This document shows positions 1 through 59,559 of a stretch of DNA of 64,000 nucleotides, piece after piece. Origin of the DNA: Cyanidioschyzon merolae (taxonomy: Eukaryota); assembly GCA_000091205.1 (NCBI GenBank), contig AP006489.2; one strand, 5' to 3'. Positions within the stretch are counted from its first letter, which is position 1, and each line of letters opens with the position of its first letter. The translations under genes were made by a program, and so were the position numbers. The notes under the pieces are model-generated. The model saw only the letters and a list, made by a program, of their open reading frames with translations. It made no database searches and was not told where the DNA came from.

Positions 1-95
1 CTAGCCTTCAACACCTCATCTTCCTAGACGCTGCTTTTGCGGCAACCGCGGCTGCCGCATGACCTAACCATAGCTCATGTTCACTACCTCTCCGA

Positions 96-1493
96 ATGCC
101 GAAGAATGGTCTCTCTTTAGGGAAAGTAGAAGCGGTTGCTGCTAGTCTGGACGTTCCCGAGGGCTACCACTGGCCGCACGAGGCCTTCCGTTCCCTCGAC
201 GTTTTAACTCGGTGCCCGATCTGTGGGGAACACTTCCGCGCGCCTGTGCTGCTTGAGTGTGGCCACAGTTTCTGCAGCGAATGCATTCGTCGTGCGCTTG
301 TTTATCGAAGCGAGTGCCCGCAGTGTCGAGCGCCCGCCAGTGCAGGGCAACTTCGTCGAAACCGTTTGGTTCAGGACGTTACAACCGCGTGGCAACAAGC
401 ACGCGAATGCGTGCTAACCCGCTTTTCACCACAAGAGCACGCTGGGAATACGGAATGCCGGAGCTCGAAATTGGAAGCTTCGACTGAGAGCGGCCTCACG
501 GTTCGAGAAAGAACCGAAGCAGCTTGCCCGGTGCGAGCGGCAGCGCTGACCGCACAAGTTGCGACTAGAGGTCGCGCTCGGAGCGCTCCTGTCCCGCCAG
601 ACGAGCATACCGCAGCGGTATCAGCTGTTTGGACAGACAGACAACACCAGAATTGGGATGAAGCGGGTGTCTGTTGTGGAAATTGCGAGGAGTCGGCTTC
701 CTCTGCAGTGTCAATGTCGAAGCGCACCGAACCCAGTCATCGATTCGAAAGAAGCGCTGAACGGGCGGGAGCCCAGCCTCCGAACGGAGGACTGAGCGGC
801 ATTGCGGCTGTACCGCAGCCGCTTCCAGTGTTTCAGAAAACAGACGACATCTACGCGGAGGATTGGTCGGAGGCTGCTCCAACTCGGACGCCCGCCGCGT
901 TGCCTGGTGAAGCTGCACGGGCAATGGAGCCGCGCCCACGAAACGATGCAGAGTCGACGGCGACAAGCGGTCACGCGTCGTTCACTCGACGGGCCTCGTG
1001 CGAGAGGATCCAGCAAAGAGACCATACCAAGTATGTCGAGTGCCCCATTTGCAATCGTGCATACCCGCCGGCTTTTATCCAGGTCCACGTGAATGAATGC
1101 CTGGATCAACTGGATGCCGTAGAGGCGAGCGGCTTTCCGGAAGCCGGATCTCGGGCTTTGGCCAAAGCCACCAACACGCTCGAAGACGAATATCCGATGC
1201 GGAAGATTCCCGAGGTTTGGTACGACGGCCTGACTGAACGTCGTCTCCGGGAAATGATTCGGGCGCTCGGCATGAAAGCTCCACCAGCGTGGCTCCGGAA
1301 TCGTCGTGGCCTCATTTACCTGCACCGCGAGTACGTCATTCGACATAATGCGGAGTGCGATGTGGAGCCGGTGACCGCGCGCAAACAGCGACGTAACATC
1401 TGCAGAGAGGTCGAGGAACTCGCCTGGTTCCAGATCGAGTCTGCGAGGCGACCCACACGACCAGAGGCAGCGCGTTCTTCGAATGCAACCTGA
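96..1493 (+). CDS. RAD18: RAD18-like E3 ubiquitin ligase (post-replication repair)
   Basis: N-terminal C3HC4 RING (CPICGEHFRAPVLLECGHSFCSECIRRAL...CPQCR). UBZ4-type zinc finger (YVECPICNRAYPPAFIQVHVNECLD). SAP domain (LTERRLREMIRALGMKAPPAWLRNRRGLIYLHREYV). Domain order RING-UBZ-SAP is the RAD18 architecture. Single 465-aa ORF. Confidence 0.85.
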   Translation: MPKNGLSLGKVEAVAASLDVPEGYHWPHEAFRSLDVLTRCPICGEHFRAPVLLECGHSFCSECIRRALVYRSECPQCRAPASAGQLRRNRLVQDVTTAWQQARECVLTRFSPQEHAGNTECRSSKLEASTESGLTVRERTEAACPVRAAALTAQVATRGRARSAPVPPDEHTAAVSAVWTDRQHQNWDEAGVCCGNCEESASSAVSMSKRTEPSHRFERSAERAGAQPPNGGLSGIAAVPQPLPVFQKTDDIYAEDWSEAAPTRTPAALPGEAARAMEPRPRNDAESTATSGHASFTRRASCERIQQRDHTKYVECPICNRAYPPAFIQVHVNECLDQLDAVEASGFPEAGSRALAKATNTLEDEYPMRKIPEVWYDGLTERRLREMIRALGMKAPPAWLRNRRGLIYLHREYVIRHNAECDVEPVTARKQRRNICREVEELAWFQIESARRPTRPEAARSSNAT

Positions 1494-2032
1494 AAGCAGA
1501 CGCTTGCTTCGGGCGAGCGTGCTGTCAATGTGCACAGGCGTCGACGATGACGCCTATCGCGTTGCGCTGTGGTATTTTGAAGCATTGAGGCCACTGGAAT
1601 CGTTGTGAACAAGAAACGCTGACGACTTGGACAGATGCATGAGTCTCTTGCATGCTTGCATCGATTCGAGGTAGCTGTCATGCCACTGGGCTGTTTTCAT
1701 GGGAAGCACTGCGTGTCAGTCGTAGATTCTGATGCGTACAGGAGCGCGAGTGAAGCTCAAACTCCTTGCGAGATATTTTCGAACTTGGTTCGTTATACCC
1801 AGTTTTTCCTGTTGGTGCAGTTTGGTGCGAATGAAAAAGACCGAGGAGTCGGTGATGAACGGACGATGAGGCCCAAACGGGGCCAATTGCTGTTCGCGAT
1901 TCATTATTTATTAGAATACGCTACGCATAGGCATTTCGGAAGGGTAAAGTCTGTGCGTCCATCGATACACTGGAGCACCGATCTATTGCCCTTGCTTCTG
2001 CGCAGACCGCCCTCGATGCCACCTTCGCAGCA

Positions 2033-2053
2033 GTGTGTGTGTGTGTGTGTGTG
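2033..2053. repeat. (GT)n microsatellite, about 10 units
   Basis: Direct reading of gtgtgtgtgtgtgtgtgtgtg. Confidence 0.95.
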
Positions 2054-2713
2054 CTCGTGCGCTACCTCGCGTCAACGCTCGCACATGCCCGTAAACGCTG
2101 TGCAATGTCTGTGTGTGTCTGCTCCGCGCTGCAGGTATAGGTGCGATAGCGAGCGCGCGTAGCAGGCACAGCACCCGGATGACCGCATCCACTGACTTGC
2201 TTCGCCAAAGAAAAGAACGAGTGACTGTCGTTCAGCACCTGGAGGTTCGTAAAACCCGACTCGTACCGCAGAATGGAAGCACGGATCGTCGTCGTTGCTG
2301 GGTATCGAACGTGTCTGGTGCTGCATCATAAATGCTTTCGTCGATAATGTTACGTATCGCGGACTCGGGCTCTCATGGCTCGTGGAAACGACCCTGTGCC
2401 CCCGAACAAAACGAACACAAACACTTCATCCGATCCGAACAGTTCCCCGCAACAGGCCGCGTACCATGCCTGGGAGCACAGCCCCGGTGCACATCGCCTC
2501 TTCAGCGCCCGTGCCGTCGAAATACCTGAACGAGACATGCAAGTCCCAGCCAGTCCAAGCCAGTTCTTCCTCTCACAAAAAGAAGATGCCCGGAAGAACT
2601 AGCGACTGTCGTTTCTGACCGACCGCCTCCGACCTGAAACAAAAACCCGCTATGGTCGCTCGTGGTGCTTGTGTTGGACCCTGCGCGATGTGCGCTTTCT
2701 CGCCAATGCATCG

Positions 2714-3943
2714 CTACGGAGCAGCAAAAGGCTCCGAATCATCGGGACCACGCCGATGCCACCTGTTTTGTGGATAGAGAAGCAGCGCCTGTCGATCCCA
2801 CGAAGCGATCATACCGGGTTTTGCTTCGTCCTTCCAGATCTCCGTCGAACACGGTGGCCTGATGCAGCGCACCAGCACCGTCTCGTTCACTGTTTCGTAC
2901 GAGTCTTCGAGGCCGTACCCGCTGTCCTGGATGAGCCAGTCTCCGGGTCGCCACAGCTGACTCGCGTGCCGCAGCGCACAGTTCTCTGGTCGGCCGACGC
3001 TAGCATAAAAGTTGAAACCAGGTGCTTCGTGGCGGTAATACACCGCCTGCTGCTGCTGCTGCTGCTGGCGGTTGCGTTGACCGTACCCATAACCGAGGCG
3101 AGCCATATGGTATCGCCAACATCCTTCGATGTGCCGCAACATGGCAGCCGGCGCCCGTTGTAGCGCTGGACTGCCCACGAAATGAACGGGGAAAAGCACC
3201 GACGCTCGACAGGGGTAGGTATGGGCGTAACGCAGGAGCAACTCTGGTGGAGCACTCGGGAACGCGGCATGCAGATACAGAAGGTGCCACAGAGCGGTCT
3301 GGTCTAGACTCGCTTGCGGCCACTGGGTGCCCAGTGCGATCCAGTTCCGCACAAATTGCAAGGATTCCGGTGTATTACGGAGGAGAAACGCTCCCGAGTT
3401 AATCTCGGGTCCATCGTGAACGACCACGTAGTGCTCTGGACTGATTCCTTGCAAGAACGTCTGGACCGGAATCGAAAAGTTCGTGATCACTGCATCCACA
3501 TCAACGTACATGAACCAGTCGTACGGAGCGTCTTGCTTCAGTAGACGCTCAAGTGCGAAGAGGCGATTGTAGTGCGGTGGTAGAGGTTGTCCTGGTTCGG
3601 CGTGTCGCTCGGGTGTCGCAGCGACCTTCAACCAGTGATACGGATAGGAATCGAGTAGAAAATCGACTGTCGCTGACCATTTCTTGGCGTAGAGAACTTT
3701 GTTCTGAACCGCGTACGCAAACCGTCGGGCATACGCTGCCGTTGTCGTGCTGAGGAGCGCCACCCGAGGCAGCTGGGTTTCGTGCCCAGCCCCAGGCCAA
3801 AGTGCTCTTGGAGTGCGTTTGCGCGTCAGGGAATAACTACTGCGACTGATGCCTAATTGACATCCTATCCAAGAGCCGATAAGACAACAGGCAACAACGA
3901 AGGCGACGGTCCGACCGACTCGACGGCGTAGGTGACGCTTCAT
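2714..3943 (-). CDS. Glycosyltransferase family 34 (GMA12/MNN10-like alpha-1,6-mannosyl/galactosyl/xylosyltransferase), type II membrane protein
   Basis: GT34 signature blocks NKVLYAKKWS and DWFMYVDVDAVITNFSIP (DxD) with HDGPEINSGAFLLRN. Probable start at Met of MKRHLRRRVGRTVAFVVACCLIGSWIG (signal-anchor) at 3943. The ORF stays open upstream to 4189. Contains (CTG)7 (3047-3067) encoding poly-Q. Confidence 0.8.
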   Translation of the reverse strand: MKRHLRRRVGRTVAFVVACCLIGSWIGCQLGISRSSYSLTRKRTPRALWPGAGHETQLPRVALLSTTTAAYARRFAYAVQNKVLYAKKWSATVDFLLDSYPYHWLKVAATPERHAEPGQPLPPHYNRLFALERLLKQDAPYDWFMYVDVDAVITNFSIPVQTFLQGISPEHYVVVHDGPEINSGAFLLRNTPESLQFVRNWIALGTQWPQASLDQTALWHLLYLHAAFPSAPPELLLRYAHTYPCRASVLFPVHFVGSPALQRAPAAMLRHIEGCWRYHMARLGYGYGQRNRQQQQQQQAVYYRHEAPGFNFYASVGRPENCALRHASQLWRPGDWLIQDSGYGLEDSYETVNETVLVRCIRPPCSTEIWKDEAKPGMIASWDRQALLLYPQNRWHRRGPDDSEPFAAP

Positions 3944-13922: not shown

Positions 13923-16718
13923 TCAGACGGACTCTCCGCGCCGATGCCGCGAAGCATTCGCCGTCGAGTCCTCGGTCAGATGTTGCGCTTGCAGTCGAGC
14001 CTCGAGCCTTGAGAGCTCGCGCTTCTCCAAGAGGTCCCTGATCACTGCAGCGAGCTCAAAATCCAACTGTGCAGCAGCTTCATGCATGTGCGTACGAAGC
14101 TGCTCATCGTCCAAGGCGCCAAGACCCGCCGGTAACCTGCCCCCGAGGCCCATTTTCGAACTGGTCTTCTCTCGTTTCAGATAGGGTTCATGCTTCGCAA
14201 GAATCGAACGCGGCTCCATTCCATATTTCGCGTTGTAGGCTGCTTGTATAGCTCGCCGTCTTTCGGTTTCTGAGATCGCTCGCTGCATCGAGTCCGTCAG
14301 CGTATCCGCGTAGAGCGTCACGGTGCCGGCTACGTGGCGCGCCGCACGCCCCATTGTCTGAATGAGTGCGGTCTCGCTTCGGAGGAATCCTTCCTTGTCC
14401 GCGTCGAGAATGGCCACCAGACTGACCTGAGGGAGGTCAAGGCCTTCCCGAAGAAGGTTCACGCCGACGATCACGTCACAGCTTTCTGTGCCAAGGGCTG
14501 AGAGCACCTCTACCCGCTCCAGAGCGTTCAGTTCGGAATGCAAGTAGCTGACCCTGAAGCGCTGTTCGCGGAGGTAACGGCAGAGTTCTTCAGCCATTCT
14601 CTTCGTTAGGGTGGTAATCAGGGCTTTCTCTCCTCGCTGTACTCTTTGGCGAAGCGAAGCGGCTAGGTGTTCGATCTGGCCCCGGGTAGGGTGCACCTGA
14701 ATCCGCGGATCAAGCACATGCGTCGGGCGAATCAACAACTCCGCCAGGGCACCGTCGGCGAGACACAGTTCGAATGGGCCCGGTGTAGCTGAAACAAACA
14801 CGCAGCGATGGACCTTGGTCCAGAACTCTGACTCACGAAGCGGTCGATTCTCCAGAGCGCTCGGTAGACGAAAACCGTAACGTACCAGGTTTTCCTTGCG
14901 TGCGCGATCTCCATGGTACATACCCCGTATCTGCGGAACCATAACATGGCTCTCATCGATGATGAGTAACCATTCGGGGGGAAAGTAGTCCAGTAGGCAC
15001 TCGGGTGGTACATCTGGTGCCCTGCCCGAGAGGTGCATGGCATAGTTCTCGATTCCCGAACAGTAGCCGTGTTCGCGCAACAGCTCAAGGTCCTGGGTCG
15101 TGCGTCGCTCCAGACGCTCGGCCGCGTGGTGCTGCCCTCGCTCGCGGAGCCGTTTGCAGCGGCTTTGTAGTTCAGCGGCGATAGCCTGGAGCGCCCGCTC
15201 GCGCTCCTCCTTGGGCGTCACGAAGTGCCGAGCGGGATACAAGGTCACATGGGAGCTGTATTCCACATCCGCTCCCGTTTCGCGATCCACATACCTGAGT
15301 TCGACAATTTGATGATCCTGTACATCGATGCGGAGTAATAGCTCCCGCTCATCCCACGACGGTAGCGAAACCTCCACCGCCGTATCCCTGATCCGAAACG
15401 TACCCGGATCGCGGGGATCGGCTCTGCGTTCGTAGAGCATGGCCTCCAGTTGTAAAACGATCTCGTCGAGACTGCAGACATCACCGAGTTTAAGGCTTGT
15501 CGCTGCTCGAAGGTACGTTGACGGCATGCCGAGGCCGTAGATGCACGATACTGACGAGACGATGATCACATCGGGGCGCTCGAACAGGGCGCGCGTGGCA
15601 GCATGGCGATAACGATCAATGTCCTTATTGATGCTTGCCGACTTTTCGATGTACGTGTCTGTGGCACTGTTGTAGGCCTCTGGCAGGTAAAAATCATAAT
15701 AGCTCACGAAAAACTCGACTGCATTCGATGGGAAGAATCCCCTCAGCTCACGATACAGTTGTGCTGCGAGCGTCTTGTTCGGTGCGAGTACCAGGGTTGG
15801 TCGTCCGTATTGCGCGATCACATTTGCGATAACGAAGGTTTTGCCAGTGCCCGTAGCGCCTTTAAGGACCTGGAATCGTTTCGAGGGCAAACGATCTACG
15901 AGGCACTGAATGGCTGCAGGTTGATCAGCGGCAGGTGTGTAGGGCGCGACCAGCTGGAAACGCTGATCAGGCAGTCGCGCAAAATGCTCTGCCAGTGTCT
16001 CCTGCTCTGCGCTTCTGCGAGGCGATATCGAAACGTCTGCGGGTATCGGTAGAATTTTGGTCAATGGAACAATTTGATCTGCGTCGTCGGAATAGCGGAA
16101 GATGTGCCAGCCGTGCTGTTCGAGGTGTTGTTGAGCGTCCGCGTCCAGTCGCCCGCGTCGAAGCAGCAGCGCCAGTTGTGTACAGAGTCGCCACATCACT
16201 GCATGCCGTGCAACAAGTCGCTCTGCGTCGGGTCTTTTCAGTGGCAGCTTGCGTTCTATGACAATGACCGCCATACTATCGTCCAAGTACAGTTTCATTG
16301 ATCGGGAGAAGCGAGCGTTTTTGGTGATCGCGTGCTCCGCACTCCCATTGCACACCTCTTGTACGAAGCGAACAAGTCGCTCAAATGGAGGCCGCTGCTC
16401 GGTCGCCACACGCGGATCCAAGGGACGCCCGTGTGCAGTTGCTGCAAGCACCGCTCGGCTCGCATCGTTCGTTGCGTTGCAGACGAGCGTCAGCGAAGGC
16501 CAGCGCCCGGCGCCGTTGGCGAGCAAGCGCATCACGACTGGGCCGTGGAACACCCCACCACCGATCCGCAAACGACACAAACATCCCGCGTTCCTCGCTA
16601 AACCTGACCTGCATAATCCTAAATTCCCTATGAGGAACATACACGCAAGCGCGTCAAAGCACAGACGAGAAGAGTTCAACACAGACACACACTCGACAGA
16701 GTTCACGCTGGTGCGCAA
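13923..16718 (-). CDS. uvrB: Full-length bacterial-type excinuclease ABC subunit B (UvrB) with a roughly 245-aa N-terminal extension
   Basis: Collinear with E. coli UvrB end to end. FQLVAPYTPAADQPAAI. Walker A GATGTGKTF. LVLAPNKTLAAQLY. FVSYYDFYLPEAY. IYGLG. HGYCSGIENY. IDESHVMVPQIRGMYHGDRARKENLVRYGFRLPSALENRPL. FVSATPGPFE. ILDADKEGFLRSETALIQTMGRAARH. C-terminal UVR domain LDFELAAVIRDLL. The N-terminal extension has a hydrophobic stretch ALACMFLIGNLGLC followed by an R/S/A-rich region. The exact start is uncertain. Confidence 0.9.
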   Translation of the reverse strand: MRTSVNSVECVSVLNSSRLCFDALACMFLIGNLGLCRSGLARNAGCLCRLRIGGGVFHGPVVMRLLANGAGRWPSLTLVCNATNDASRAVLAATAHGRPLDPRVATEQRPPFERLVRFVQEVCNGSAEHAITKNARFSRSMKLYLDDSMAVIVIERKLPLKRPDAERLVARHAVMWRLCTQLALLLRRGRLDADAQQHLEQHGWHIFRYSDDADQIVPLTKILPIPADVSISPRRSAEQETLAEHFARLPDQRFQLVAPYTPAADQPAAIQCLVDRLPSKRFQVLKGATGTGKTFVIANVIAQYGRPTLVLAPNKTLAAQLYRELRGFFPSNAVEFFVSYYDFYLPEAYNSATDTYIEKSASINKDIDRYRHAATRALFERPDVIIVSSVSCIYGLGMPSTYLRAATSLKLGDVCSLDEIVLQLEAMLYERRADPRDPGTFRIRDTAVEVSLPSWDERELLLRIDVQDHQIVELRYVDRETGADVEYSSHVTLYPARHFVTPKEERERALQAIAAELQSRCKRLRERGQHHAAERLERRTTQDLELLREHGYCSGIENYAMHLSGRAPDVPPECLLDYFPPEWLLIIDESHVMVPQIRGMYHGDRARKENLVRYGFRLPSALENRPLRESEFWTKVHRCVFVSATPGPFELCLADGALAELLIRPTHVLDPRIQVHPTRGQIEHLAASLRQRVQRGEKALITTLTKRMAEELCRYLREQRFRVSYLHSELNALERVEVLSALGTESCDVIVGVNLLREGLDLPQVSLVAILDADKEGFLRSETALIQTMGRAARHVAGTVTLYADTLTDSMQRAISETERRRAIQAAYNAKYGMEPRSILAKHEPYLKREKTSSKMGLGGRLPAGLGALDDEQLRTHMHEAAAQLDFELAAVIRDLLEKRELSRLEARLQAQHLTEDSTANASRHRRGESV

Positions 16719-18661
16719 CTGTCATGTCCGCCTGCCAACGGATTACAGGAGCGCGCTCCTTTGACGGGCGATTTGCTTTGCGTTTTCTCTCGGCGATCAA
16801 AAGTTTACTTTGACCATGCATCCCAGATTGCGGGATGCGTATTGGCTTTCGGAAAAGCGTCCTTAGGGCTGCGCAACACTACCAAGTTCCATGACGTAGA
16901 CTTGCATTCGGATGTACTGGACGTTTAGTACGTTCTATCGTGTGCCGAGTGCCTGCATTACTGCACCAGCCGTATCGCATATGCCTCTGTTACGGATCCA
17001 GCACGGAGACGGAACGGCTTTGCCATAGAACAGAGGGCGTCGGCTCGAGGTATGATTCATTCAACATGGAATCGGGATTCATTAGCCTGCTGGGAGCGTG
17101 CAAGCTGCGCAGACACACATGCTGCCTGCGACAGCGCGAAGCGACATACGAGGCGGATACCACGCCGACCAGGGCGATGCCCAGACGCAGCCTGTCCGCT
17201 GGCAGTCCCAGATTACACTGCGTTCCGGATGAGCTGCTGACATTTCCCTACAGGACTCGCCACTCGCGAGGGCATCGTGCACTAGCCCGATAGACTCGTC
17301 CGGCTCGCGGAACTTTCTGCCTAGAAAGAAGAGTTTCGAGGATACGGAAAGCGTTTCCCCCTCCTAGCGTTCTTCGTAGTGGGGGCGGGAAATCTTTATC
17401 TCGTTGCTGGTGAATCTTGAGTCTCTGTTCTTTGCCCTGAATAGCGCGCTCGATACGTGCGCCTTTATATTTGGCAGGAATTGAACATGTCCTGCTTCTC
17501 ATCGTTGAAGAGAAGCGCAATCCTGATCATTATCGTGTTGCAGCAAGGTGCAATGTGGATTTGCATGAAAGTCGTCGCAAAGTATAGTTGTGTATCTCAA
17601 TTGGGTTTCAATCTTTACATTTGTGGATTCAAGTGCTTTTTCGCTGTGTATAACAAAAACGTTCAAAGTGCGTTCTCTTTTGCAAAAGGAAAGAAAGGAA
17701 AGTTATGGAAGTAGAAGTGGAGGATCCTGCAGGCCTGGTGTCGGCGGCTGCCGCAGAGAACAAAAAACATTTCCGGCACCATAGGAACGGGAAAAGACGA
17801 AGAATCAACGGGAACGAGGGAGGGCGGACGTCAGACGCCGCACGAAAAACGACACTACGACGAGATGTTCGTGAAAGCTTTTCTTTCAAGCCGTATCGAG
17901 GATCCCTACAAGCAACCGTTGCAAGAGGTCATCAGAAACCCTGTCGAATCATATTCCAGGAGTGCTCAAATCTCCTGTTTAGGACTGATGCATATGACGA
18001 GGGAGATGTATCGCGGCGTGACGCGCATAGAAAGAGTCGAGGTTCCGGAGGAATTTTCTAACGAGACCTTCATCCGCCACTTGATGCTTGGCACGGGGGA
18101 AACCTCGAAGAGAAATGAGCGAGCGCATGACGTACAGGAAAATGACACCGAATTCCGCTTCAACGGTACTCGATACAAGTATGACGGGGACATTCACACC
18201 TACGGGGCGATCTAGTACCCCAGGATCCTGAGGAACCCCATGATCGTAAACTTCGACCGCATCATGATACGCTCCGTCTTTGCACTGTAACCGGGCCTCT
18301 CTCGCAAAGGGATATGGGCTATCGTCGATGGCATCACGAACGATAGTGACAATGAAGAGGAGACCGAATTCGCCGAAAAGAAGGCATCACCCGGGAGCAT
18401 GAATGAAGCTTCTGTGCTCCGTGCGGCTCTTCGAGAGCACCGTACGGGTTGGCGTTAGCCAATCCTGCAGCAAAGGTATCAGAGATGAAAAGAGATGCTA
18501 TCCCCTCATCCTGCGCTATTTCGTGTTCCTGAACCGAGAGCTCGAACGCAAGGCGGAGATGGAGCTGGATGTGGAAGCAAGTGAAAAGTCGGTGAAACGG
18601 AAGGCTGCGCTTCTGAAGAGGCGCTTCAACCTCGTTCTGGAATGCAAAAGCAAGTCGCGCT

Positions 18662-19887
18662 TTGTGGCTAGCGATTCCAGATTCCTTCGCTGCTCCAAGG
18701 AGATCTGTCCGAAATTCGATGTTCATAACAAGGAATTCACGGGAGAAAAACGGTGAGACTCATCGGAAGAATATCTTCGATTTCAAACGTCTCAAAACGA
18801 GCAAGAAAAAGGTATTCACGGTGACGATCGACAGCGATGGGGTATCCATATGTGTACATTATCGGCGGTTGAAGGCGGATCGTCCAATTGTGCCTTCGGC
18901 TTCGCCCGCGGCGAGGCACGAAGAAAACACGGAGGCGGGCCCTGGATCGTATAACCCCCAGAAGAACGACATCGTGGCAGGCGCAGACCCCGGGAACACG
19001 TATATCATAACCATCGCAGTGCCCAGGGGTGCGAAAGATGGTATTGCTGGCGGCTTGCGTCAGAAAGCCATGAGTCTTTTAAAGCACTCAAAAGCGAGAT
19101 ATTACCGAGAGTCTAGGATAATTCATGCGAGGAAAAAAGTGTGACGTAGAATGCAGCCGGGAAGGCGCACCTGGAGGCGATCAGCCAGGTGACGGGCCGC
19201 CGAGCGGACTCTGAAGCTTTTCAGGAATTCATGAAAACTCATGCTGCTCACTAGGAGGAGCTGTGGAGAGATTACGCAAAGCTCCGGTTGGCTCGTCAGC
19301 GTATGAATCTCTACTGTGGGAAGCAACATGCGTTCGCCAACTTTTTCAATGAGTTGAGCGCCCTGGAGGAGGACGAGAGTCAAACGCTCGTAGTAGCATA
19401 CGAAGCAGGGCGCTCGATGAATCAAAAACGGAGCATACCCGCTCCGTAAACCACAGCGTACAAGGAGTGTGCACAGTGTTTTGTCATAATACCGATAGAT
19501 GAGTTCCGAACGTCATATACGGACCATGAACGGGGGTATACACTTCACCGGGTCGAGATGGAAAAGTGCCAGAGGAGCCCTGTGAAGATATAGAAAAGTA
19601 AGGAGAGCTGACAGAAGAGCAAAATGGAATGGAGGGCGAAAGTTCCAGGGCTACTTGCACTGGTGAGTACAAGCGGTGGCAAGAAACGTATGGAGTTTAT
19701 GAATCTTGACTTTAACGCCGCTATCAATATCAGACGAAGTGCGATTCTGAAGACGGGACCTGCAGAGCTGACGAGAGCCAACTTTGTGGGGCAGCCAGTC
19801 AAAGTCGAGTTTTACAAGGAACAGCCGAAGCCGATATCACTCGAGCAGTCGAAAAAGGCTCGGAGGCGTCTACGCGTCGGTGTATAG
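18662..19887 (+). pseudogene. Decayed TnpB/Fanzor-like (IS605 OrfB-type RuvC nuclease) gene, copy b
   Basis: Ordered motifs in frame 1 and 2. RuvC-I-like [17 protein letters not shown] (about 18990). TS/zinc-finger motif KECAQCFVIIPIDEFRTSYTDHERG (about 19465-19540; compare TnpB VSPYFPSSQLCHDCG). RuvC-III NLDFNAAINIRRSAIL (about 19700-19745; compare ISDra2 DRDENAALNIRREAL). Spacing matches TnpB. Interrupted by at least three in-frame stops (about 19238, 19448, 19590) and a frameshift near 19145. Lies in an AT-richer island. Confidence 0.65.
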
Positions 19888-21179
19888 ACATATACGCTCT
19901 GGGTCTCACGGAAGCAAATGCAACGATGCGCTGTCCATTGGCGATACGCTGCACGCGTTTCAGGCAACGAAGGTCGCTGCTGTGAGTCACGGCAGCATCG
20001 ATGCCCACGAGAAAGGCAGTTCGATGCAACAACCTCACACCACACAGGATCGTTCTCTGCGGACAAGGCGAATCGTTCACACTGCTGCTCGGTGCCGGAT
20101 TGGCTTCAGATGCCGGCGATGATCTCTCCTCGTTCATCAGCGTCGACAGCAATCCGAGTCGCCCCGAGTCCGGGCACTGAATCGATGCAACTGTGGCGCA
20201 ACCATGTCAGATACTGTGTCGCGTTAGCCGTGAAGCCCGAACATGCAGTCATGTATGTGATGGTCTGCATCCAGTGACTGCAGCACTGCATCGGGGCGCT
20301 TTCGGGGCGTGCACAGGTGCCTCTGGGTCGATGATCCTGGCGAGCGGCGAGACGTCCGCGAGCATCCTCGCAGCGAAACAATGGTGATAGATGCGTCATC
20401 CTCGCATGGCTGCGTCCTCGCGAATAGCGTCGAGCGCGCTTGCCATGAGGCTTACCAGCATCGACCGAACAGACCAAAATCCCCAGAGGAAGGTACGGTC
20501 AAGGGCCCACGGGAAGCATTGGTGGTAGAATGCGGGCTGATGATTGATTCCCTCGATGCCGATACGCATCGCACGCGGAGGAACTCCATATCAAATGAAA
20601 CGATCCAAGTTTTCGTCACGTGAGCGAAAAGTGCAACAGGCTCGCATCGTCGGGCATACACGCTCAAGTTTGCGTCGCTTCCTGGTGTCATGAACAACAG
20701 CGTTCGTATGCGTTTTCTGAGATTGCTTCTTTTTCCTCTCTCATATTTCCGGCTTCAAACTACGTCGGTCTCTATTGTCCATCCAGGCTCTGTTGCCAGC
20801 AGTCGAATGACGTTCTTAGCCGCGGAAACGTTCCGATTTCGCTGCTTGCCGCTGTTGTCGACGCATTTCAAGTAACGGCGGTCGTTGCGATCCATGGTTC
20901 GATGGCCAGTTTCATCTTCTCTCTACACAGCCTCGGAGCGCCTTTTGTGGCGGCCAAACTTGGCAGTGATCAGGCGTTCTCGAATGTCCGCTAAACCTCC
21001 TGCTCCTCGTACGGGCGCCGCTCTGTGGCACGAGAATGCATGCTTCGCCTCTCAGCACATGCACTTGACGAACGCAGGAGGCTACCCTCGATGTCTGTCT
21101 CCGGTTTCCGCGCCCGACGGTATACACCGGGATCACAGGCTTCCTGTTGGCGAACTCCGCAAAGCGCTCTCTGTCCGTT

Positions 21180-27391: not shown

Positions 27392-28179
27392 GGTCCATGC
27401 TTTTCAAACGGCGCTCTTGCTGCGTCTTGAACCGCCGTTCTGCGGCCTGATGTAAGCGCTTCGTAGTCCAAGGGGACGTGCAGGATACGCAACTGCGTCG
27501 ACCTAACGACGTCGCGTTGGGTGAAGGTCCCCGTAGCTGCGTAGCTGTGGCCGGCTATGCGCGGCCAGGCGAAGCGCAAGTCCTTCCCTAGGAGGCCAGC
27601 AGTTTGATCAACTTGTATCGCCTGTACCGTACGATACGCTAATGAAACCGGTTAACTTTGCGAACTCGGGTGTGCATGCTATAGTTTGAGTCTCTTGCGA
27701 CTGTCAAAAATACCAGCCTTTGCGGAGCGGTTTTCGCGACTGTTTCCTTTTCCTCTCTCTTATCTCCGGATTTCCATACGATGGTCTCTCGTTTCACCCC
27801 AGCTCTGATGTCAGCTGTCGAAGGAAGCGGATGGCAGTGCTCAAATCTCGATCTCACTGATTTCGGCGGTTTTCGACGACTCCTATGCCCGGGCATAAGT
27901 TGCCCGTGATGCTTCCCGTGCCATTTTCATCTGCTTGGTTTACAGACCGGGTGCGCATGTCAGAGCGATGACAAGCCCTATGGTGGTCAAGTGTTCCCGT
28001 GTGTCCACCGAGCCTCCGTCTTCTAAATTCGCTCTGTGACTCGTACAGGCTTGCTTCATCGCTCGGCATGTGTCCAGGTGAGGTGTATCGGACGCTCATC
28101 TGGATACCCGACTCCGTCTCCGCCTCCATCTTCGCAAACCGAGGCACTCTCCTACGATCACGCGCTTCTTCTGAGCGAT

Positions 28180-32305: not shown

Positions 32306-35300
32306 CGCACCGCCACCTATAGCCGCAGGTCGGAGTCACTACCACAAAGCACCCTCTGTGCTTTTTCCTTTCAGTTAAGGTCCCCTAGTCGTCAAACGCT
32401 CGGCTGTCAGTGCCCAAAGCCGAAATGCAGGACGCAAGCGGGGATGTCCGCAACAGCACCAGCACCGACTGCGGTGTCAGCTGCCTGCCTACAGTGTTGC
32501 CCGCGGGATGTGCACTTTCGTACTGTGCTCACGTTGTGTATGCTGCGCAGTGACGGCGTTGGATGCAACAGAGAAAAGTGCAACTGAGCAAACATGTTCC
32601 AGGAATTTTTTCTTGGAATCAGAACTAGCGTACTTGTCGCAGTGATCGACAGGCTCGCTGTTATCCACAGTGGTGGACGGTAGCGCGAACTGCCTCTGCG
32701 GATGGATATCGCACGGAACGAGAAGCGCTGCTTGCATGCACGTACGCTTTCCTAGGACCCGAACTCAGAGATGGTACTTGCGACGCATGGTAAGCTCTGG
32801 ATATGGAAGGCAGTGCCCGCCAAACCTAACTAGCTGCTTCACCAGACGACGATCAAATTCTATATTGCGAGTGCTTGGCATCCGGATTCATCCCGAAACA
32901 ACTCGATACCCAAAGCACAGAGATTGCTTCAACAAGTGATCCAGATGCGAGCGCTCATGCTCCAGTGCGGGAGCAGCAAGTACAGCTACAACGTCTTGCC
33001 ACGCGTCGAAGACGAGCCACTTGCCCTAAATGCCGAGAGCGATGCGCAGGTAGGTATCTGCCCTGACGTATGTGTGTGCAGCGTCCATGAAGACAGCGCT
33101 GTGCGTTGCGCGGCTGGAGTGTCTCTCGGAGACGTGCTTTTGATCACATACGTAGAATCAGGACTGTAGGCGTCATACACAAAGCACTGAAATGTGGAAT
33201 ACATGTATCATCATGATCTTTTTGACTTTGTTCGTCGTTGTCTCGCGGAGGTATTGGACAAAGGGAATGAATCCTGTCGATAGGGGGAAACGCCGCGGAA
33301 AGAATTCATGCTGGGGCTGCTCGCTTGCGAAAAACTGGTTCACTCGCCCAAGTCAGTCATTCTGGCATTCAGCACGTACTTGAAGCGAGCTTCTCGTGGC
33401 GCTGATGCCGAACCTCTTGCACCCAAAACGGAACCTGTCGTTCTCTATTTAGACAAATGTCTGACTGGTTGTCCATACATTCCCGTCCGTTATTCCTTTG
33501 TGAAAACCTCTCAAAGAAGCCACAGGACGCGACTTTTTCCTACTAAGGATACGAAAAGTGACGAAGAGGCACTGATGGACATAGGGAGAAAACGTGCTTC
33601 TACGGGACTCCGTCACGCGTTGAACAGCACACGAACACTGTTGTACTGAAACGCAAACGCTTCCCACACAATGGACGAGTGTTCGTCGCCCTGGACGTTA
33701 CGCGATTCGAGAAAAACGCTCGACCTGTATACGGTACTCAAAGAGGTTTAGAACGCTGTCCGTACAGAAGATGCGAGCGAGCATGACAACAATAAAAGTC
33801 CTAGCGGCTCTTCAAAGGTGCAATCGCCTACATATCACCAGGCGGAGAGGATCAATCGACATCTCATTGTTCGTTGACGCGTGCTTCGTGGCTTCTCCTT
33901 CCTCGGTGCTGCTGTCCTACTCTCGGACAAGGTCGCCGTCCATCAAGTAAAAGCGGTCATGCGGCACCCGACATACGTTGGCGTTGAGCTGATCTTCGTA
34001 CCAGCTTCTGCGTTCTGGTGCAATCCAGTCGAAAACATCTTGTCTAGTGCGAAGCGCCGGTTTTCGCGCCCACGGATCAATAGATTGGTCAGTTGCACCC
34101 GCGACGCTGAAAGCTGCAGGACGCCACTGAGGATCGCGTAGCTTTCTAGTCGAGGAAGGCTCGCCTAGCACTCATCGCCTCGACGCACCTCGTCAAGCAA
34201 ATGTGCGTAAGTTTCTCGGACACACGGCATCGAGCTGTCCTTTTTCCACTCGAATTTTCTGATGAAATTTCCCTGCGACAGTACAACGGATATTCGTTAG
34301 AAAGCACGCAACTCGATCTGATGTAATGATCAGAGGTTTGGAGGCACACTTCCCAGCATACCTTCAGACGTGGACGCGTCACGTTGTCAATTGAGGTAAA
34401 CGATACAGCACAGGTGTGAAAAATTATTGAACAAGACTCAAAAAGCAAATCCATTTGCAGGTCAATGTCGAGCGATTCATGAGGTCTGTCTCGTGAGCGT
34501 TGTACGCTCAACTCGCTGGTCCAAGAAACTGAAGACTACTTCAAGCGGATTTCACGCTTCAGAGAGTATATGAGTACCCAAACTTAGCATGCGGACAATC
34601 TTATGGACGCTTGCATAGCATTGCGCTGGGGTCGCCATTTGTTTCGGTTCGCGATGAGTGCAAAAAACTTGCATTCGCCAAGTTCCTCCATGGTTTCATA
34701 AAGGAAATAGCTGCTCAGTCGAGTTGATTTGCGGTTGCCTAGTGCGTATCACGTGGCGCAGCGCGCCACGGTCACGTTCCTGCTCCTTCGACGAGTCCAG
34801 CAAGCGACCCTGCATGATTCCCGTTGATGCGCTCCGAGCGACACAGACGCATCACGAGCACGGGCGGACATGGAATCTGGAATAGAACAAGCGTTTGAAA
34901 CAGCGCCGAATACACGAAATTGCAAACAATACGCTGAGCAAACCTCCGAAAGCAAGGCAATTGCATCCGTGACCCTCGCGTTGGTGGAACTCCGCCAACA
35001 ACAGTGCACGACAGCACGTTCTGCACGACGACCTGAACACCCCGGTCAGTATCCGAAAAACAACTTCACGTTTCCGGAACGTCCATTGGCTCTGTATTGA
35101 GCAAACGTTTCTAGTGATCAGGATGAACACAGAGTAGGCATCGTGCTGAAACACTGAACACTTTCAAAAAACAGTTAGTGTCTAGATGATAGGGCAATGG
35201 AATCCAGGAAAACTGTAGCGCCCTATACACGCACACTGGAAACAATGCCCCTGAACAATCACCCTTGTGCTCCATTATGGGATATCAAAGCGATCATTGC

Positions 35301-47660: not shown

Positions 47661-49741
47661 AGGGTGAATGCGTACCCATTCGGAGACGCCTTCCAGCCGT
47701 GTTCGACCGGCCGCCTGCTATCGGTTTCCGTTTTTCCAGGCACACCTCGAGCTTGAGAGGCTACCTCACAAAGTTAGATCACTTGAGCTCCTCGGGTATC
47801 GTCTTCGGCACCACACATTGTCTGATATTCGTAGCAGCGTAAAGTCTCGTTTCACGAACTCTATGGGTTTCTCGTTGCTGGTGGAACTCATCCGCGAAAG
47901 GATAGCTAAAATGCGTGCCGCTACAGCCTAGTTATCGTGTCGTCGGGCAAACACCTTGTCTCACTTGTCTCCCCTTTTACTTTTGCTGCCTCATCACTTG
48001 CTCTTCTTCGCTTGATGGTTAGTGAGATGCGGATTTATTTCGCTTGTTTCCGACGACCGGGGATGACTGTCCTCCGGGATCCTTGAATCTCACGCCCATA
48101 CCCTTTGCTTGGATTTTTTATTTCTTAGAAATGAACGCATTTCTGTATGCCCCTGTGTGAGGGCGTTCCCAGATGCACGATAGCTCGCACAAGAAAGACG
48201 ACATGTGCCCTGGGTTGTTAGCGTGCAGAACGCTCAAGCGATTCGCCCAGTGGAGCGATTATTAATTTCACAATAGAAAACATTTCTTATACGTGGTTGA
48301 AACATGCAGCGTACGGAGGATAGAGAAGCAGCTCTACTCCTGGGACAGATTCGACACAAGCTCGAACGCTAGGGGAATGGTGAAATACCACGCTCTCCAA
48401 CAGAAGGACGTTGCCAGATGTCAGGGAAAAGTCTTGTGTAATTCGAGCAAGTGGCTGATGCAGTTGTTCAGGCCTTCTCTACGAGCGAAACTGAGCCGCC
48501 AAATGAATCCACCGCAGCTAGAACAGATGGTGTCGTCGTCGTCCAGTTGGATCGCACATAAAACGGGCTCCATCTCCGAGAAAAAACATTCACGCTCCGA
48601 CCATTTCGTCCGAAGGAACTATGATCGAATGAAAAAACAAACCGACATCCCTGTGCTTCATAGCGATCGCGAAGTTCCAGGTACGCTGTTGATGCGTTTT
48701 TGGTAAACAATGGCCGTACATGAACTAAGACTTTTTTTCGACTGTATCCCAGTGTTTTTCGGGACCAAACGAACTAGATGTTGCGAAACAGAGACGCCCA
48801 TGATGGCTGCTGCGATCGTTGCTTTTGCTTTCCGTAAGGTAGTCAGCAGGTCGTTTTCCTACCCTTGACCGCAAGAAGTCTTGAATAATATCGGTATTCG
48901 GCGCAAAGCGCATCTGCTTGTTTCTTGCAGGGTTCGCCAACCACCTGAGTACTGTGGTATGACTGACACTGAGGATTCATGCGGCGCTCCTTATACAGTT
49001 CAGTAAAGAATCTATCCTACAGGGAATTCGTCCAGGAGGTATAGAGCGCATTGCATCCTGCCCTCGATCACCTGCTATCCACCGCAGCACAAGTGAAGCA
49101 AAACTGAGTTGTGAGACCTGAACAAGGTCGATCACCTGCAGCGGATTTCGTTCGTCCGACGCCTCTAAGATCGCATTGGTACGGGGACATGAACTTCGCG
49201 GCCATTGCTCGCCTGCGAACGGTATGATGCGTAGACCAAGTTCGTGTTCCAAGTCATGGTGATGGTCACGGTGATGCGTATCACAGAACGACCAGAAAGG
49301 GCCGGTGCGGCAGCCGCCGCCGCCGCCGACGACGACATCCGTCGGGAGACCCCTTCATGGCGTCAGTAGGTCTAGGCGGGACGACTCACGAGCGGAGCGA
49401 ATCCTAATAACTGGCTTTGCCTTGTTCGTAAAACGTGCGGGCATGAAATCTCGTATCTGAGGTTTTAATGAGCACGCCCCTGATTCTATGAAGGAAAAGC
49501 GGAACCGAATCGCGAGACTGAGCATCGCGGTCTGCCGCCGAGAGCATGCGACCGAGACAGCTTTCGTCCTGTAGACACTAGGCATCCACGTACACCGGAA
49601 AACAAACACGACTCCATTGGATGCAGTAACCAGTGCCTCGTTCACAGAAGCGTTTCGCGGTGCGCATCCATGCTATGCCGGCGTCGACGCTGAACGCGCA
49701 GCCTCCGTGCGCACTCCAACGTCGATAGCCATTTGCGTCGG

Positions 49742-56270: not shown

Positions 56271-57326
56271 TCAGCACACTGTCCGTACTGAATACAAAAC
56301 CGTTTCCTTGAAAGCGCGCTCGACTTTAGCTGCCGGACGCTCCCGAAGCATGAGACAGATCCGGATGTTGATTGAGGCGTTCGGCTCTTGGTTCGGACAC
56401 TGCTTTTCCGCATCGGTGCAGCGGAGCCTGACCATAGAAAGCCCCTCAGCTTCCGATTGCCACGCCATGTGACTTCCAGCCAGCTTACCACGCCTCATCT
56501 CACGCATCCGGCTCCGTTTCACGCCCTTCTTCTATACCTGTTTCAGCGTGCACCCGTGCTCGTGATCCGTGCACGTCGTCGTCTTGAACGCATCAACGCG
56601 AATCGTACAGAATCGGTTCCTGAACTCGTTGAAGGCTCTCGTGTAAGGAGCAAGCGTGCCGTCCCGGCGTGGCACTGTACGTCCAGCACCAGAGGATACA
56701 ATTAAGCGATACGATTCGTCGGTAATATCCGTTCCCAACTCATTGACCAAGTTATCGAATGCAAGTTTCTTGCTTCTGTACAACAGTGACTCTAGGCTAG
56801 CAGAGCGCTCTCTCGTGTACGTTTGCCAAATATCGTCCGTGCGAGTTCTTCGGACGCCCAGAAACGCGCTAGAAAAGGCGCACGATACATTCGCTGCATG
56901 CTCGATACAGCGCACAGAGCGTCGAGGTAGGTGCTGATATTTCCCTCCATCATTCCACTTGTTCATATGCGTCTTGGCCTCGCTCATGGCGGACGATCGA
57001 TCGTGCCGGGCCCTGGAAAGTTTGAATAGCGTGAACTGCTTTCGTAGCGGGTGTTTGGCACCGTTCTCTTGATTTTAGGGGTGCGGCGGCGACGGTGGCT
57101 ACGATGTTCTAATAAGCGGGGTCCACGCTCTTTACGGACTGAAGCTCTCTTCGTCTACCCTGAATGATTGAAGACGAGTCTCGTTTGCCGGTTTGATACT
57201 TTTTGGCCCCGGTGCGGTAGGATTTTCGTGAATCGCCGGGATAGCGCCGCGACGCGGCAAACGACTCCGAGAAGCACAAGTGCAAACCTCTGACCCGACG
57301 ATCAGACCGAATTGCGTCTTCTGCAC
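56271..57326 (-). pseudogene. Decayed TnpB/Fanzor-like gene, copy e (homologous to copy b, opposite strand)
   Basis: ORF 56532..56987 (-) contains KKLAFDNLVNELGTDITDESYRLIVSSGAGRT (copy b: KQHAFANFFNELSALEEDESQTLVVAYEAGRS) and the TS/zinc-finger motif RFCTIRVDAFKTTTCTDHEHGC. After a single in-frame TAG, the same frame continues (ORF 56271..56522) with RCTDAEKQCPNQEPNASINIRI (RuvC-III D.NAA.NI, degenerate). Upstream, ORF 57132..57326 (-) HENPTAPGPKSIKPANE parallels copy b [17 protein letters not shown]. It is further broken by a stop and a frameshift. Confidence 0.6.
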
Positions 57327-59559
57327 CGTGTATCAATTGTACTGTTGCACGCAAGCTTGATGAAAGAGTTCCGCAAGAATTTGGACGGTAGACAGTCCTG
57401 CGTCCCGAACTCCGAGGAAGAGCTGCTTGACGAGGCTCATCATGGCATGAGGAGCTAAGCAACTAAGCCTCGAGTCAGAAGCTACGGGATCCGTCATTCG
57501 CGTCCTGCATCCTGCATTTTGAAACATTCTCCATGTTTATTTTTCTGGATATGAGATCTTGACACTGCGTCCGGAATGACTCTACCGTTGGTTCCAGTGC
57601 CTGCTCGCCCCCGTCTTTGTCGATCTGTCTCGTTCTTGTCAGATAGAGTCTGCTCCATTTCTTTTTCTTGGCAAAGTGGCATGGATGGGTTCGCTAGACT
57701 CCACGTCCGTTTCTCCCTCGGGATACAGGCGCACTGGATGGATCCTGACACTGAAATCCATCCCCTCTTTGTGTGTACCACTCCTCACGCGCCGTTTCGT
57801 TGTCTTCTCCGATGCGAGCACAGCTGCGGACCGTGCGCACCGCTCCGCTGCCTCCCGCGAACGCGAAGAGAAGCGACACAGCACACCGGGGGCCGGCGAA
57901 GCCAGAGAGCAACGAATGGATGAACGGTTTCACCGATGCGAACGAGTGTCCCATTGATTTGAGAGGGTGAAAATAACGTTTGTCAACATCGAAGACGTCT
58001 TCGACTGGGTTGATCCATGGGCAATAGCACGATAAGGAGAGCAGCGCAACATGAATGTCGATTGTGCACTACGCAACCGTTCCGCATTGATCGAAAGCGA
58101 CGTTATCTAAGAACGGAACAGAAGAAGGCGGGAAGCTCAAGCTACGCTTCGTGTTTCTTGGATCGCTGAGCTACGAAAAGATCTGGTATGTATGTCGATT
58201 TGTAGGCGACCACACGATTGAATCGCTTCTAGTCCTGGTGGCCTCGTAACGGCCAATCGTACCTTGTTTGCGATCAGCGGCCCGCCAGTGTTTGAGTAGT
58301 CGTATTGAGGTCTACCGTTTTCGGTGCATACAGGCTCGGTGAATGCGACAAACATCCGTCTGTCCTGAGGTAAGCGTTCGTGCTTCAGTGCGACACCGAT
58401 TCTGAGCAGTTCTACAAGCGACACTTGTCATCGAAGCGCCTTGCTTTTTCTTTCCATCTGTGTCTCTTCATCACCGTTCGGATCTATATTATGCGAGCTT
58501 TATATTCTGTGGCTTTTCGACAGTATACCTAAAAGGACGCACCGCGTGCAATGGACTGACGAGCAGACAGTCACATGGGCAGTGTTTGGCGATTCTATCT
58601 TTGGGAGCACGACCTTCGGGCTATGCACGAACAGAAGCGTCATTCGTGCACCAGATGAGCATAGAGTGACTGACGCGTAAAAGCGATGCTCTTTTTCGTA
58701 GGCTGGTAATGACAGCATCCCAAATCTCAGCAACATTGCTTCGATCCACTGAATTCATTCCTTTTATTGAATACTTGCGAGAAAAACATACAAGAAGAAA
58801 TAGGGCTTGCTTTAGAGGGGTATTCCAGAGCGCATGGCCCCAGCTATAACGCCAGCGTTTCTCGATGTCGCCCTTGTGTCGATATCGCTGACCCGTTGCG
58901 TGCTGCCGGAGACAGACTGCTTGGAAAAAACGACCTCCATCGGTGCACATCTGCTTCATCCACGCAAAAATAAAATCGAACAGTTCCTCTGACCTACCTC
59001 GGACGTATGCGATGAAGCTTGGGTGCCTTTCCACTGTCAGCGACAAGAGTCCCCGTGGGCTCTTCTCTGAAGGATTCCTTTTTCGTTCGCTTGTCTCAGA
59101 CTCGAAATACTCTGGTCGTTTCTGTTCCGCAAGCTCCATCATCAGCAGTCGAAAGTCGTTGACGGCAGCGTGAATATCCCAAATTGGCAGCTTCAGGCTG
59201 TTTCTGACCATTTCGTGCACAGGCCAAAGCTGCGGTGGACTCTTCGCTTGCCGTGTTCATCTTCTTCCTACCAAGCCTCGATGTGCATTTCGCAGTGTTG
59301 ACACCTGGTGAGGTCAGATGTTCTCATGTGTCCGCCATCACTCGTCATCTGTGGACCGGACTGTGGCGCGTAAAGACCTGCTTCATCGCACGGCACATGC
59401 TCTTGAGTGATGGCGACGGCTCGATTCGATACCCTCTCGCTTTTGCACGCCTGTCGCCGTACCCTACGATTCCGGGCTTCTTCTCGACGATACCGTCGGC
59501 GAGTGCGCTGGCCGGCGCACAACCAAGCGCACGTCTTTCTATTTGATGGAGGATCTGTG

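Follow-up and report, generated by a model that had tools for sequence, protein, structure and literature searches.

The DNA analyzed here (the window) comprises 64,000 nucleotides of the red alga Cyanidioschyzon merolae, given as one strand (contig AP006489.2, assembly GCA_000091205.1), and the subject of this analysis is an element at 16794-19889 on its + strand, which was identified as a decayed copy of CMe-1A, a transposon family coding for the Fanzor1 protein CMe-1. Six open reading frames (ORFs) of the window were exact matches to annotated proteins of C. merolae 10D (BAM79638-BAM79652, including CYME_CMG130C), and the window is therefore red-algal nuclear DNA. CMe-1A was reported by Bao and Jurka in 2013 (Mobile DNA 4:12; PMC3627910) as the single Fanzor1 family of C. 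merolae, with about 150 copies, of which some still encode an intact Fanzor1 protein; each copy shares about 80% identity with a consensus of about 3 kb. According to these authors, the family lacks terminal inverted repeats (TIRs), its target-site duplication (TSD) is undetermined and its classification is unknown; the 5′ 635 bp are 95% identical to a separate repeat, TE-N2_CMe, the consensus ORF is a single exon, and the supplementary table gives no associated transposase (PMC3627910). The parts of the element that were placed in the window are as follows.

16794-19889, + strand: CMe-1A element, recognisable extent, equal to consensus 1-3099 of 3169 by blastn and pairwise alignment
16794-17432, + strand: 5′ module, TE-N2_CMe-like, equal to consensus 1-635 with coordinates mapped from the alignment
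17705-19887, + strand: decayed Fanzor1 ORF, start codon ATG at 17705, stop codon at 19887, consensus ORF 906-3110, a pseudogene
18907-18986, + strand: coding repeat of about 75 bp (25 amino acids), a single unit, equal to consensus 2117-2196
18980-19000, + strand: RuvC-I, GADPGNT by translation, catalytic Asp in DPG, invariant in the family alignment A2 (D422 of the relative P0096)
19495-19515, + strand: RuvC-II, IDEFRTS by translation, C-terminally shifted Glu, invariant in A2 (E593 of P0096)
19702-19722, + strand: RuvC-III, NLDFNAA by translation, Asp kept and invariant in A2 (D662 of P0096), Arg replaced by Leu
19890-19981, + strand: expected site of a 3′ non-coding module of about 65-70 nt, not recognisable here

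The identity of the element was established with the CMe-1A consensus (3169 bp) and the CMe-1 protein (734 amino acids), both taken from the supplements of PMC3627910. Local pairwise alignment placed window 16794-19889 (+) on consensus 1-3099 with 80.7% identity over 3075 aligned columns, and blastn matched window 16799-19881 to consensus 9-3092 with 79.5% identity. Moreover, tblastn with CMe-1 covered residues 1-728 in six frame-shifted pieces with 60-75% amino-acid identity. The identity of about 80% is the divergence that PMC3627910 gives for typical copies. It is thus almost certain that this segment is an old, inactivated CMe-1A insertion in a nuclear chromosome of C. merolae 10D, and the object is already known as one of the approximately 150 copies of a transposon family that has been in the literature since 2013. 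An earlier model reading of the same DNA, made from the letters alone (the sequence-only reading), had delimited a decayed TnpB/Fanzor-like gene at 18403-19887; these limits hold the C-terminal two-thirds of the ORF, and the alignment to the consensus revealed that they omit the 5′ third of the gene, which starts at 17705, and a 0.9-kb 5′ module with which the element begins at 16794.

The same reading had proposed three hallmark nuclease segments, in order, in two frames of the + strand, and all of them were found by translation of 17000-20400 in the three + frames. RuvC-I was read as GADPGNT from 18980, RuvC-II as IIPIDEFRTSYTDHE, containing IDEFRTS, from 19495, and RuvC-III as NLDFNAAINIRRSAIL from 19702; they are spread over two reading frames, between which the coding signal switches, broken by stops. 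In the third motif the copy has NLDFNAAINIRR at 19702, with the Asp kept and the Arg mutated, and the family consensus is NRDFNAAINIRR. If such short motifs were chance matches in non-coding DNA, and no TnpB/Fanzor remnant were present, the failure of the stitched translation to match Pfam OrfB_IS605 or OrfB_Zn_ribbon would be expected, as would the result of phmmer, in which the C-terminal 109 amino acids of the window copy had no match among all sequences of the Protein Data Bank (PDB); the near-superposition of RuvC-III on that of ISDra2 TnpB, claimed earlier, likewise could not be verified. Against this, a search of a 5.8-billion-sequence collection with the stitched pseudo-protein retrieved 159 relatives (best E = 1e-150, 52-63% identity), family hidden Markov models (HMMs) matched the six-frame translation colinearly at 17799-19815, with piecewise E values down to 3.5e-97, and the whole segment aligns over 3.1 kb to a published Fanzor1 element. 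The motifs are therefore confirmed as genuine and well outside what chance would produce, and a fortuitous resemblance is refuted, its probability being practically nil.

A side observation concerns the coding repeat, which lies just N-terminal of the RuvC-I DPG. It is acidic and Lys-rich and is present in 1 to at least 5 units across family copies, a variation in copy number that was seen both as repeated blastn matches in metagenome loci and as a variable insert in the protein alignment A1.

The membership of the CMe-1 family in Fanzor1 was examined by means of profile and fold comparisons. The shallower alignment A1, used as a profile against the PDB, yielded only noise, and the search succeeded only after divergent relatives had been added, in a 47-sequence alignment (A2) obtained after a second search seeded with the divergent full-length relative P0096. 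Against all PDB sequences, the A2 profile matched Parasitella PpFz1 (9cf0, E = 1.2e-19), Spizellomyces SpuFz1 (8gkh, E = 1.1e-12) and Guillardia GtFz1 (9cer, E = 4.7e-5), with no other credible match. An AlphaFold2 model of P0096 (predicted local distance difference test score, pLDDT, 86.9; predicted template modelling score, pTM, 0.84) was compared with the PDB by Foldseek, and the top seven matches were all Fanzor1 structures, over the full length of the WED, REC, RuvC and NUC parts (E = 6e-17 to 1e-13; template modelling scores, TM, 0.53-0.71), followed by Cas12 proteins at E ≥ 3e-5. The catalytic D/E/D triad, composed of the Asp of DPG, the Glu of DEF-R-T-S and the Asp of RD-NAA, was invariant across the 47 sequences of A2. 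Fanzors can be told from ordinary TnpB by two signatures, the DPG and the shift of the Glu toward the C terminus (10.1101/2023.08.09.552727; PMC13565253). Finally, the Fanzor1 protein VCa-1 of Volvox carteri aligned with the family profile in hhalign with a probability of 99.5% (E = 2.6e-23). Taken together, the profile matches, the fold matches, the invariant triad, the two signatures and the VCa-1 alignment make Fanzor1 membership well supported.

Some observations pull in the other direction and have to be weighed. The modelled P0096 is a relative and not CMe-1 itself, with an identity of 38% to the stitched window protein and of about 40% to the proteins of the CMe-1 group. The Pfam OrfB/TnpB models had no match in the stitched protein or in six close relatives, and PF07282 (Cas12f1-like_TNB) was weakly matched by 5 of the 47 relatives (best E = 4.8e-6); the only database label of the family is PF26935/DUF8286. 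A Pfam search without OrfB match had been named by the sequence-only reading as a refuting result, yet homology was demonstrated by other means, and the silence of these models is attributed to their distance and insensitivity and not to absent homology, so this test is not decisive. No direct sequence match to bacterial TnpB was obtained either with the A1 and A2 profiles or by phmmer of the C-terminal 109 amino acids against the PDB.

It could be argued that the gene derives from a prokaryotic TnpB of the IS200/IS605 or IS607 type, brought by transfer or contamination, or from Fanzor2, since the motif order D...E-TS...RD-NAA is common to the whole TnpB superfamily and a few relatives do show the weak Cas12f1-like_TNB match. 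The flanking genes, however, are C. merolae nuclear genes, the top profile and fold matches were solely Fanzor1 structures, neither TnpB nor Fanzor2, and VCa-1, to which the family aligns, is a Fanzor1. Moreover, there is no TnpA-like ORF in the element or beside the window copy, and Pfam matched none of the small ORFs that occur on either strand from 16940 to 20994, within the element and shortly past it. The sequence-only reading had advised a check for an IS607-type recombinase or other transposon genes beside intact copies; no such recombinase or other transposase is associated here, and none is given in the supplementary table of PMC3627910. An origin from TnpB or Fanzor2 is thus extremely improbable, and the assignment to Fanzor1 is retained.

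The window copy is a pseudogene, and its damage is more extensive than the "at least three in-frame stops and a frameshift" of the sequence-only reading, which correctly presented the gene as dead. Seven stop codons interrupt the consensus frame (17782, 18213, 18288, 19147, 19252, 19447 and 19599), and 13 of the 14 insertions or deletions (indels) within the ORF have lengths that are not multiples of 3; some adjacent indels cancel, leaving 11 separate frame-changing events, with the 18694/18696 pair counted as one in-frame deletion. The substitution rates at the three codon positions were 17.5%, 18.2% and 21.2%, codon changes relative to the consensus were 239 nonsynonymous and 95 synonymous, and identity to the consensus was 81.0% in the ORF vs. 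79.8% in the 5′ non-coding part. Such a pattern marks a pseudogene that has drifted neutrally from the time of its insertion, with a divergence of about 20%; the copy cannot encode a protein and is inert.

The catalytic triad is still encoded, and it might be taken as the mark of a gene that still functions, its stops and frameshifts being resolved through splicing, programmed frameshifting or editing. Introns are very rare in C. merolae, which counts against this possibility, and the lesions are scattered over 2.2 kb of the ORF. Furthermore, the codon positions are equally substituted, the coding part has diverged as much as the non-coding part, the RD motif has lost its Arg, and the published consensus ORF contains no intron (PMC3627910). 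There is hardly any chance, therefore, that this gene is functional. Its setting as an "AT-rich island" was also overstated, as the copy has a GC content of 0.515 vs. 0.556 in the window, a mild dip of 4 points only. The general proposal of a decayed Fanzor/TnpB-like pseudogene, left by a once-active transposon family, is nevertheless supported by the identity with CMe-1A and by the Fanzor1 profile and fold tests, and the suggestion that intact members exist elsewhere in the genome agrees with the statement of PMC3627910 on intact CMe-1A copies.

The 3′ end of the element was studied in 80 family loci from hot-spring metagenomes (L004-L083), 82-90% identical to the consensus, in which a conserved non-coding module of about 65 nt follows the stop codon (e.g., L034:4470-4534). 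This module contains a nearly invariant block, CGCCACTACTGTACAC, and ends in a hairpin of 10-12 bp, whose sequence exists in two versions with compensating differences, ACGTTTTTCTTTTGAAAGRCGTT and GGCGTCGTTCGACTTTCGAACGGCGTT. The module is followed by 10 G/T-rich nucleotides, and further out the flanks are unrelated. A covariance model (R1) gave 68 matches in the family loci, and in the R1 alignment 82% of the cells were paired, vs. 33-64% when the 3′ partners were slid, and 14 of the 21 pairs showed double-sided changes, vs. 5.3 in shuffles (0/500). In the window copy, R1 run with filters off had no match (best on the + strand 0.3 bits, E = 0.79), and a lenient alignment of the window tail to consensus 3086-3169 was no better than shuffles (31/500). 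The 3′ module is thus not recognisable past 19889, so that the copy has no defined right end. A search for TIRs or flanking direct repeats found only chance-level short matches in 16700-20100, and neither Rfam nor a tRNA scan had matches anywhere in the window. The structure search for the guide RNA of the OMEGA system (omega-RNA), which the sequence-only reading had recommended, thus yielded a candidate module in the metagenome loci, and this module was undetectable in the window copy.

At the left end, most independent insertions with a full 5′ module (e.g., L034, L049, L042 and L080) have a T-rich flank (tttttt or ttttc) right before CGATGACAAAACG, and the left flank of the window copy, 16782-16793, reads gttttctctcgg. 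This T-rich flank may represent an AT-rich target-adjacent motif (TAM) or a target-site preference; the TAMs of Fanzor1 enzymes are AT-rich and 4-5 nt long (PMC13565253). SpuFz1, GtFz1 and PpFz1 are TAM-dependent endonucleases of double-stranded DNA, guided by an omega-RNA from the 3′ end of the element. From the structured 3′ module and the T-rich left flank, we infer that an intact CMe-1A would encode a Fanzor1-omega-RNA pair, with the 3′ module as the candidate scaffold. An intact element of about 3.2 kb would express from its single ORF the CMe-1 protein, a predicted Fanzor1 nuclease of the TnpB type with a RuvC domain, which, by analogy with the characterized enzymes, would be guided by an omega-RNA from the element's 3′ end and would cut DNA next to a short AT-rich TAM.

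Several considerations weaken this proposal. The covariation was measured on an alignment fitted to the model, among copies that are related to each other, and RNAalifold applied to a plain MAFFT alignment of the 3′ ends did not recover the hairpins; the latter outcome is ascribed to the two versions of the terminal stem being out of register, for which single-sequence folds and the covariance model were needed. The terminal hairpin could instead be a transposon end or transposition signal acting at the DNA level and not an omega-RNA.

The mode of mobility of the element was also considered. CMe-1A has neither TIRs nor a transposase gene, and the missing TIRs, the terminal hairpin and the T-rich left flank prompted the consideration of a Helitron2-like or IS200/605-like element as a possible classification. 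The 5′ module proved to be interchangeable in the metagenome loci, which start at consensus 1-6, with the TE-N2-like module, or carry a different 5′ sequence, shared among them, that joins at about 640-700; in several loci (among L005-L083) a piece of the TE-N2 module stands immediately upstream in inverted orientation. It may therefore be that TE-N2_CMe is an element of its own or a favoured target and not a part of the Fanzor element. A long uninterrupted ORF was present in only 2 of the approximately 80 metagenome loci, so most of the family is dead in these sampled populations as well.

The most distinctive feature of the family was found between RuvC-II and RuvC-III. The motif shared by Fanzor and TnpB proteins was given by Bao and Jurka as D...[TS][TS]-x-x-[C4 zinc finger]...RD and listed as strictly conserved (PMC3627910), and Saito et al. 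reported the CCCC finger to be conserved in both SpuFz1 and ISDra2 TnpB (PMC10432273). Yoon et al., in turn, described a zinc finger in "many" Fanzors, and given these two wordings, "strictly conserved" and "many", the CCCC finger is best regarded as typical and not universal. IDEFRTSYT had been labelled as a "TS/zinc-finger motif": the TS part holds, but no CxxC follows it in the window copy (19513-19700), in the CMe-1 consensus or in the close relatives. This absence adds to the points that speak against a Fanzor1 assignment; it leaves the identification intact because Bao and Jurka classed CMe-1 itself as Fanzor1 and homology was demonstrated by other means. The CMe-1 segment reads DEFRTSYTHHELGC...LLALVSTTS...NRDFNAA, and that of the wider subfamily DEFRTSkvHhedd.vL..V....vRGLLWC.ST...FVNRD.NAA.

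When 1.84 billion representatives were searched exhaustively with an HMM, 7035 relatives were retrieved at E ≤ 1e-3, 975 of them at E ≤ 1e-30, the latter figure being a count of clusters at 50% identity. Cysteine pairs were counted in the top representatives that carried both flanking motifs (n = 109, among P0260-P0402): 90/109 had none, 8/109 had one pair, and 11/109 preserved the canonical CxxC...WC.STxC, these finger-keeping proteins being lower-scoring, more distant relatives. Based on this gradient, the finger seems to have disappeared in steps within this Fanzor1 subfamily, as a derived loss, and LLWCxST looks like a relic of the second Cys pair. No discussion of finger loss in this subfamily was met in the literature examined. 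Red algae, green algae, giant-virus-like contigs and many metagenomes all contain members of the CMe-1 subfamily.

One such contig may be mentioned as an observation apart. The gene at 8001-9776 of L084 (ENA contig k141_476248) is the divergent relative P0227, which shows a weak Cas12f1-like_TNB match; the contig carries giant-virus-like genes (RNA_pol_L, P9_TM), and at its far end lies a MerR-resolvase ORF of the IS607-type TnpA-like kind.

The zinc finger is treated as a conserved feature of the nuclease lobe of TnpB, Fanzor and Cas12 proteins, and the CMe-1 subfamily apparently dispenses with it. It is conceivable, although on balance rather doubtful, that the intact members, despite having no zinc finger, are active nucleases guided by an omega-RNA, that they recognize a T-rich TAM and that those of Cyanidioschyzon function in a thermoacidophilic host. 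Were this the case, the finger would be dispensable, and such enzymes would come from an organism that grows in hot, acidic conditions, which is relevant as Fanzor1 proteins are eukaryotic RNA-guided nucleases under development for genome editing. The residual novelty therefore lies at the family level, in a large finger-less Fanzor1 subfamily and its candidate omega-RNA module. The locus itself is of little consequence, being an inert repeat and pseudogene, to be masked, in a well-studied model red alga; for it, the outcome is a firm identification with corrected details, and the question of an active nuclease belongs to the intact copies elsewhere.

Besides the CMe-1A copy, the window carries three other relics of the family, which makes four with that copy, and a neighbouring gene at the left of the element.

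56301-57635, − strand: divergent Fanzor1 remnant ("copy e" of the sequence-only reading), HMM E = 1.8e-52, internally deleted
47684-47948, − strand: CMe-1A-like 3′ fragment, consensus about 2770-3082, blastn 70% over 214 nt
34099-35062, + strand: weak, internally deleted Fanzor1-family remnant, colinear HMM pieces with E = 1.5e-6 to 1e-2
13923-16718, − strand: UvrB-like helicase gene with UvrB, UvrB_inter and UVR domains, left neighbour of the element

The presence of "copy e" was borne out. At the amino-acid level, this remnant is as distant from CMe-1 as from the P0096 group (about 36% identity to each), and in it the catalytic Glu is changed to Ala (VDAFKTT) and the RD to QE (QEPNAS). It may belong to an older, undescribed Fanzor family, given that Bao and Jurka list one Fanzor family for C. 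merolae. The "four N-terminal fragments" that had also been announced were not found; instead, two further fragmentary remnants were detected, of which that at 47684-47948 was also matched by tblastn at 48-50% and by HMM pieces, and that at 34099-35062 by tblastn at E = 0.008.

The ORF of the UvrB-like helicase extends up to 16718, 76 bp from the left end of the element and in divergent orientation. Such a position, with the element starting at 16794 next to a minus-strand ORF, is what would suggest that the dead copy has been co-opted, for example, with its 5′ module acting as a promoter or regulator of the helicase gene. The copy, however, shows no conservation signal beyond neutral decay, and an intergenic insertion beside a gene is to be expected in a gene-dense genome, so that co-option is very unlikely and the element is better regarded as an inert insertion. 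With respect to the helicase, it is a bacterial-type gene in a eukaryotic nuclear genome, and its product is presumably organelle-targeted. Another repeat, of about 160 bp and not related to CMe-1A, is found at 20650-20810 and 27666-27825 with 70.6% identity between its copies, in a gene-poor stretch downstream of the element.

In comparison with known systems, the CMe-1 family shares with the ISDra2-type TnpB of IS200/IS605 elements the split RuvC D-E-D and would share the logic of the superfamily, in which, as established for the OMEGA system of TnpB, the RNA derives from the right end of the transposon and the guide from the flank (PMC10432273). It differs from TnpB in the shifted Fanzor Glu, in the lack of a TnpA partner and of the zinc finger, and in a much longer REC/N-terminal half. 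With SpuFz1 (8GKH), PpFz1 (9CF0/9CF1) and GtFz1 (9CER), which have been characterized in structure and biochemistry, the likeness extends to full-length fold and profile matches, the RuvC-I DPG, the shifted Glu in DE[FY][RK]T[ST] and the RuvC-III RDxNAA, whereas sequence identity is only 12-14%, the CCCC zinc finger of the nuclease (NUC) domain is missing in CMe-1, and CMe-1A ends without inverted repeats. In addition to its alignment with the family profile, the Volvox VCa-1 described by Bao and Jurka in 2013 likewise has no CxxC after the TS motif; it differs in its green-algal host, in an identity of about 19% over the aligned columns and in a longer, different N-terminal region. The closest counterpart is the CMe-1A consensus of PMC3627910. 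The window copy differs from it in being a pseudogene whose last ~70 bp, the 3′ hairpin module, are not recognisable, and is otherwise the same element, found in the same genome and colinear with the consensus at about 80% identity, with the same single ORF, the same 5′ module and the same absence of TIRs.

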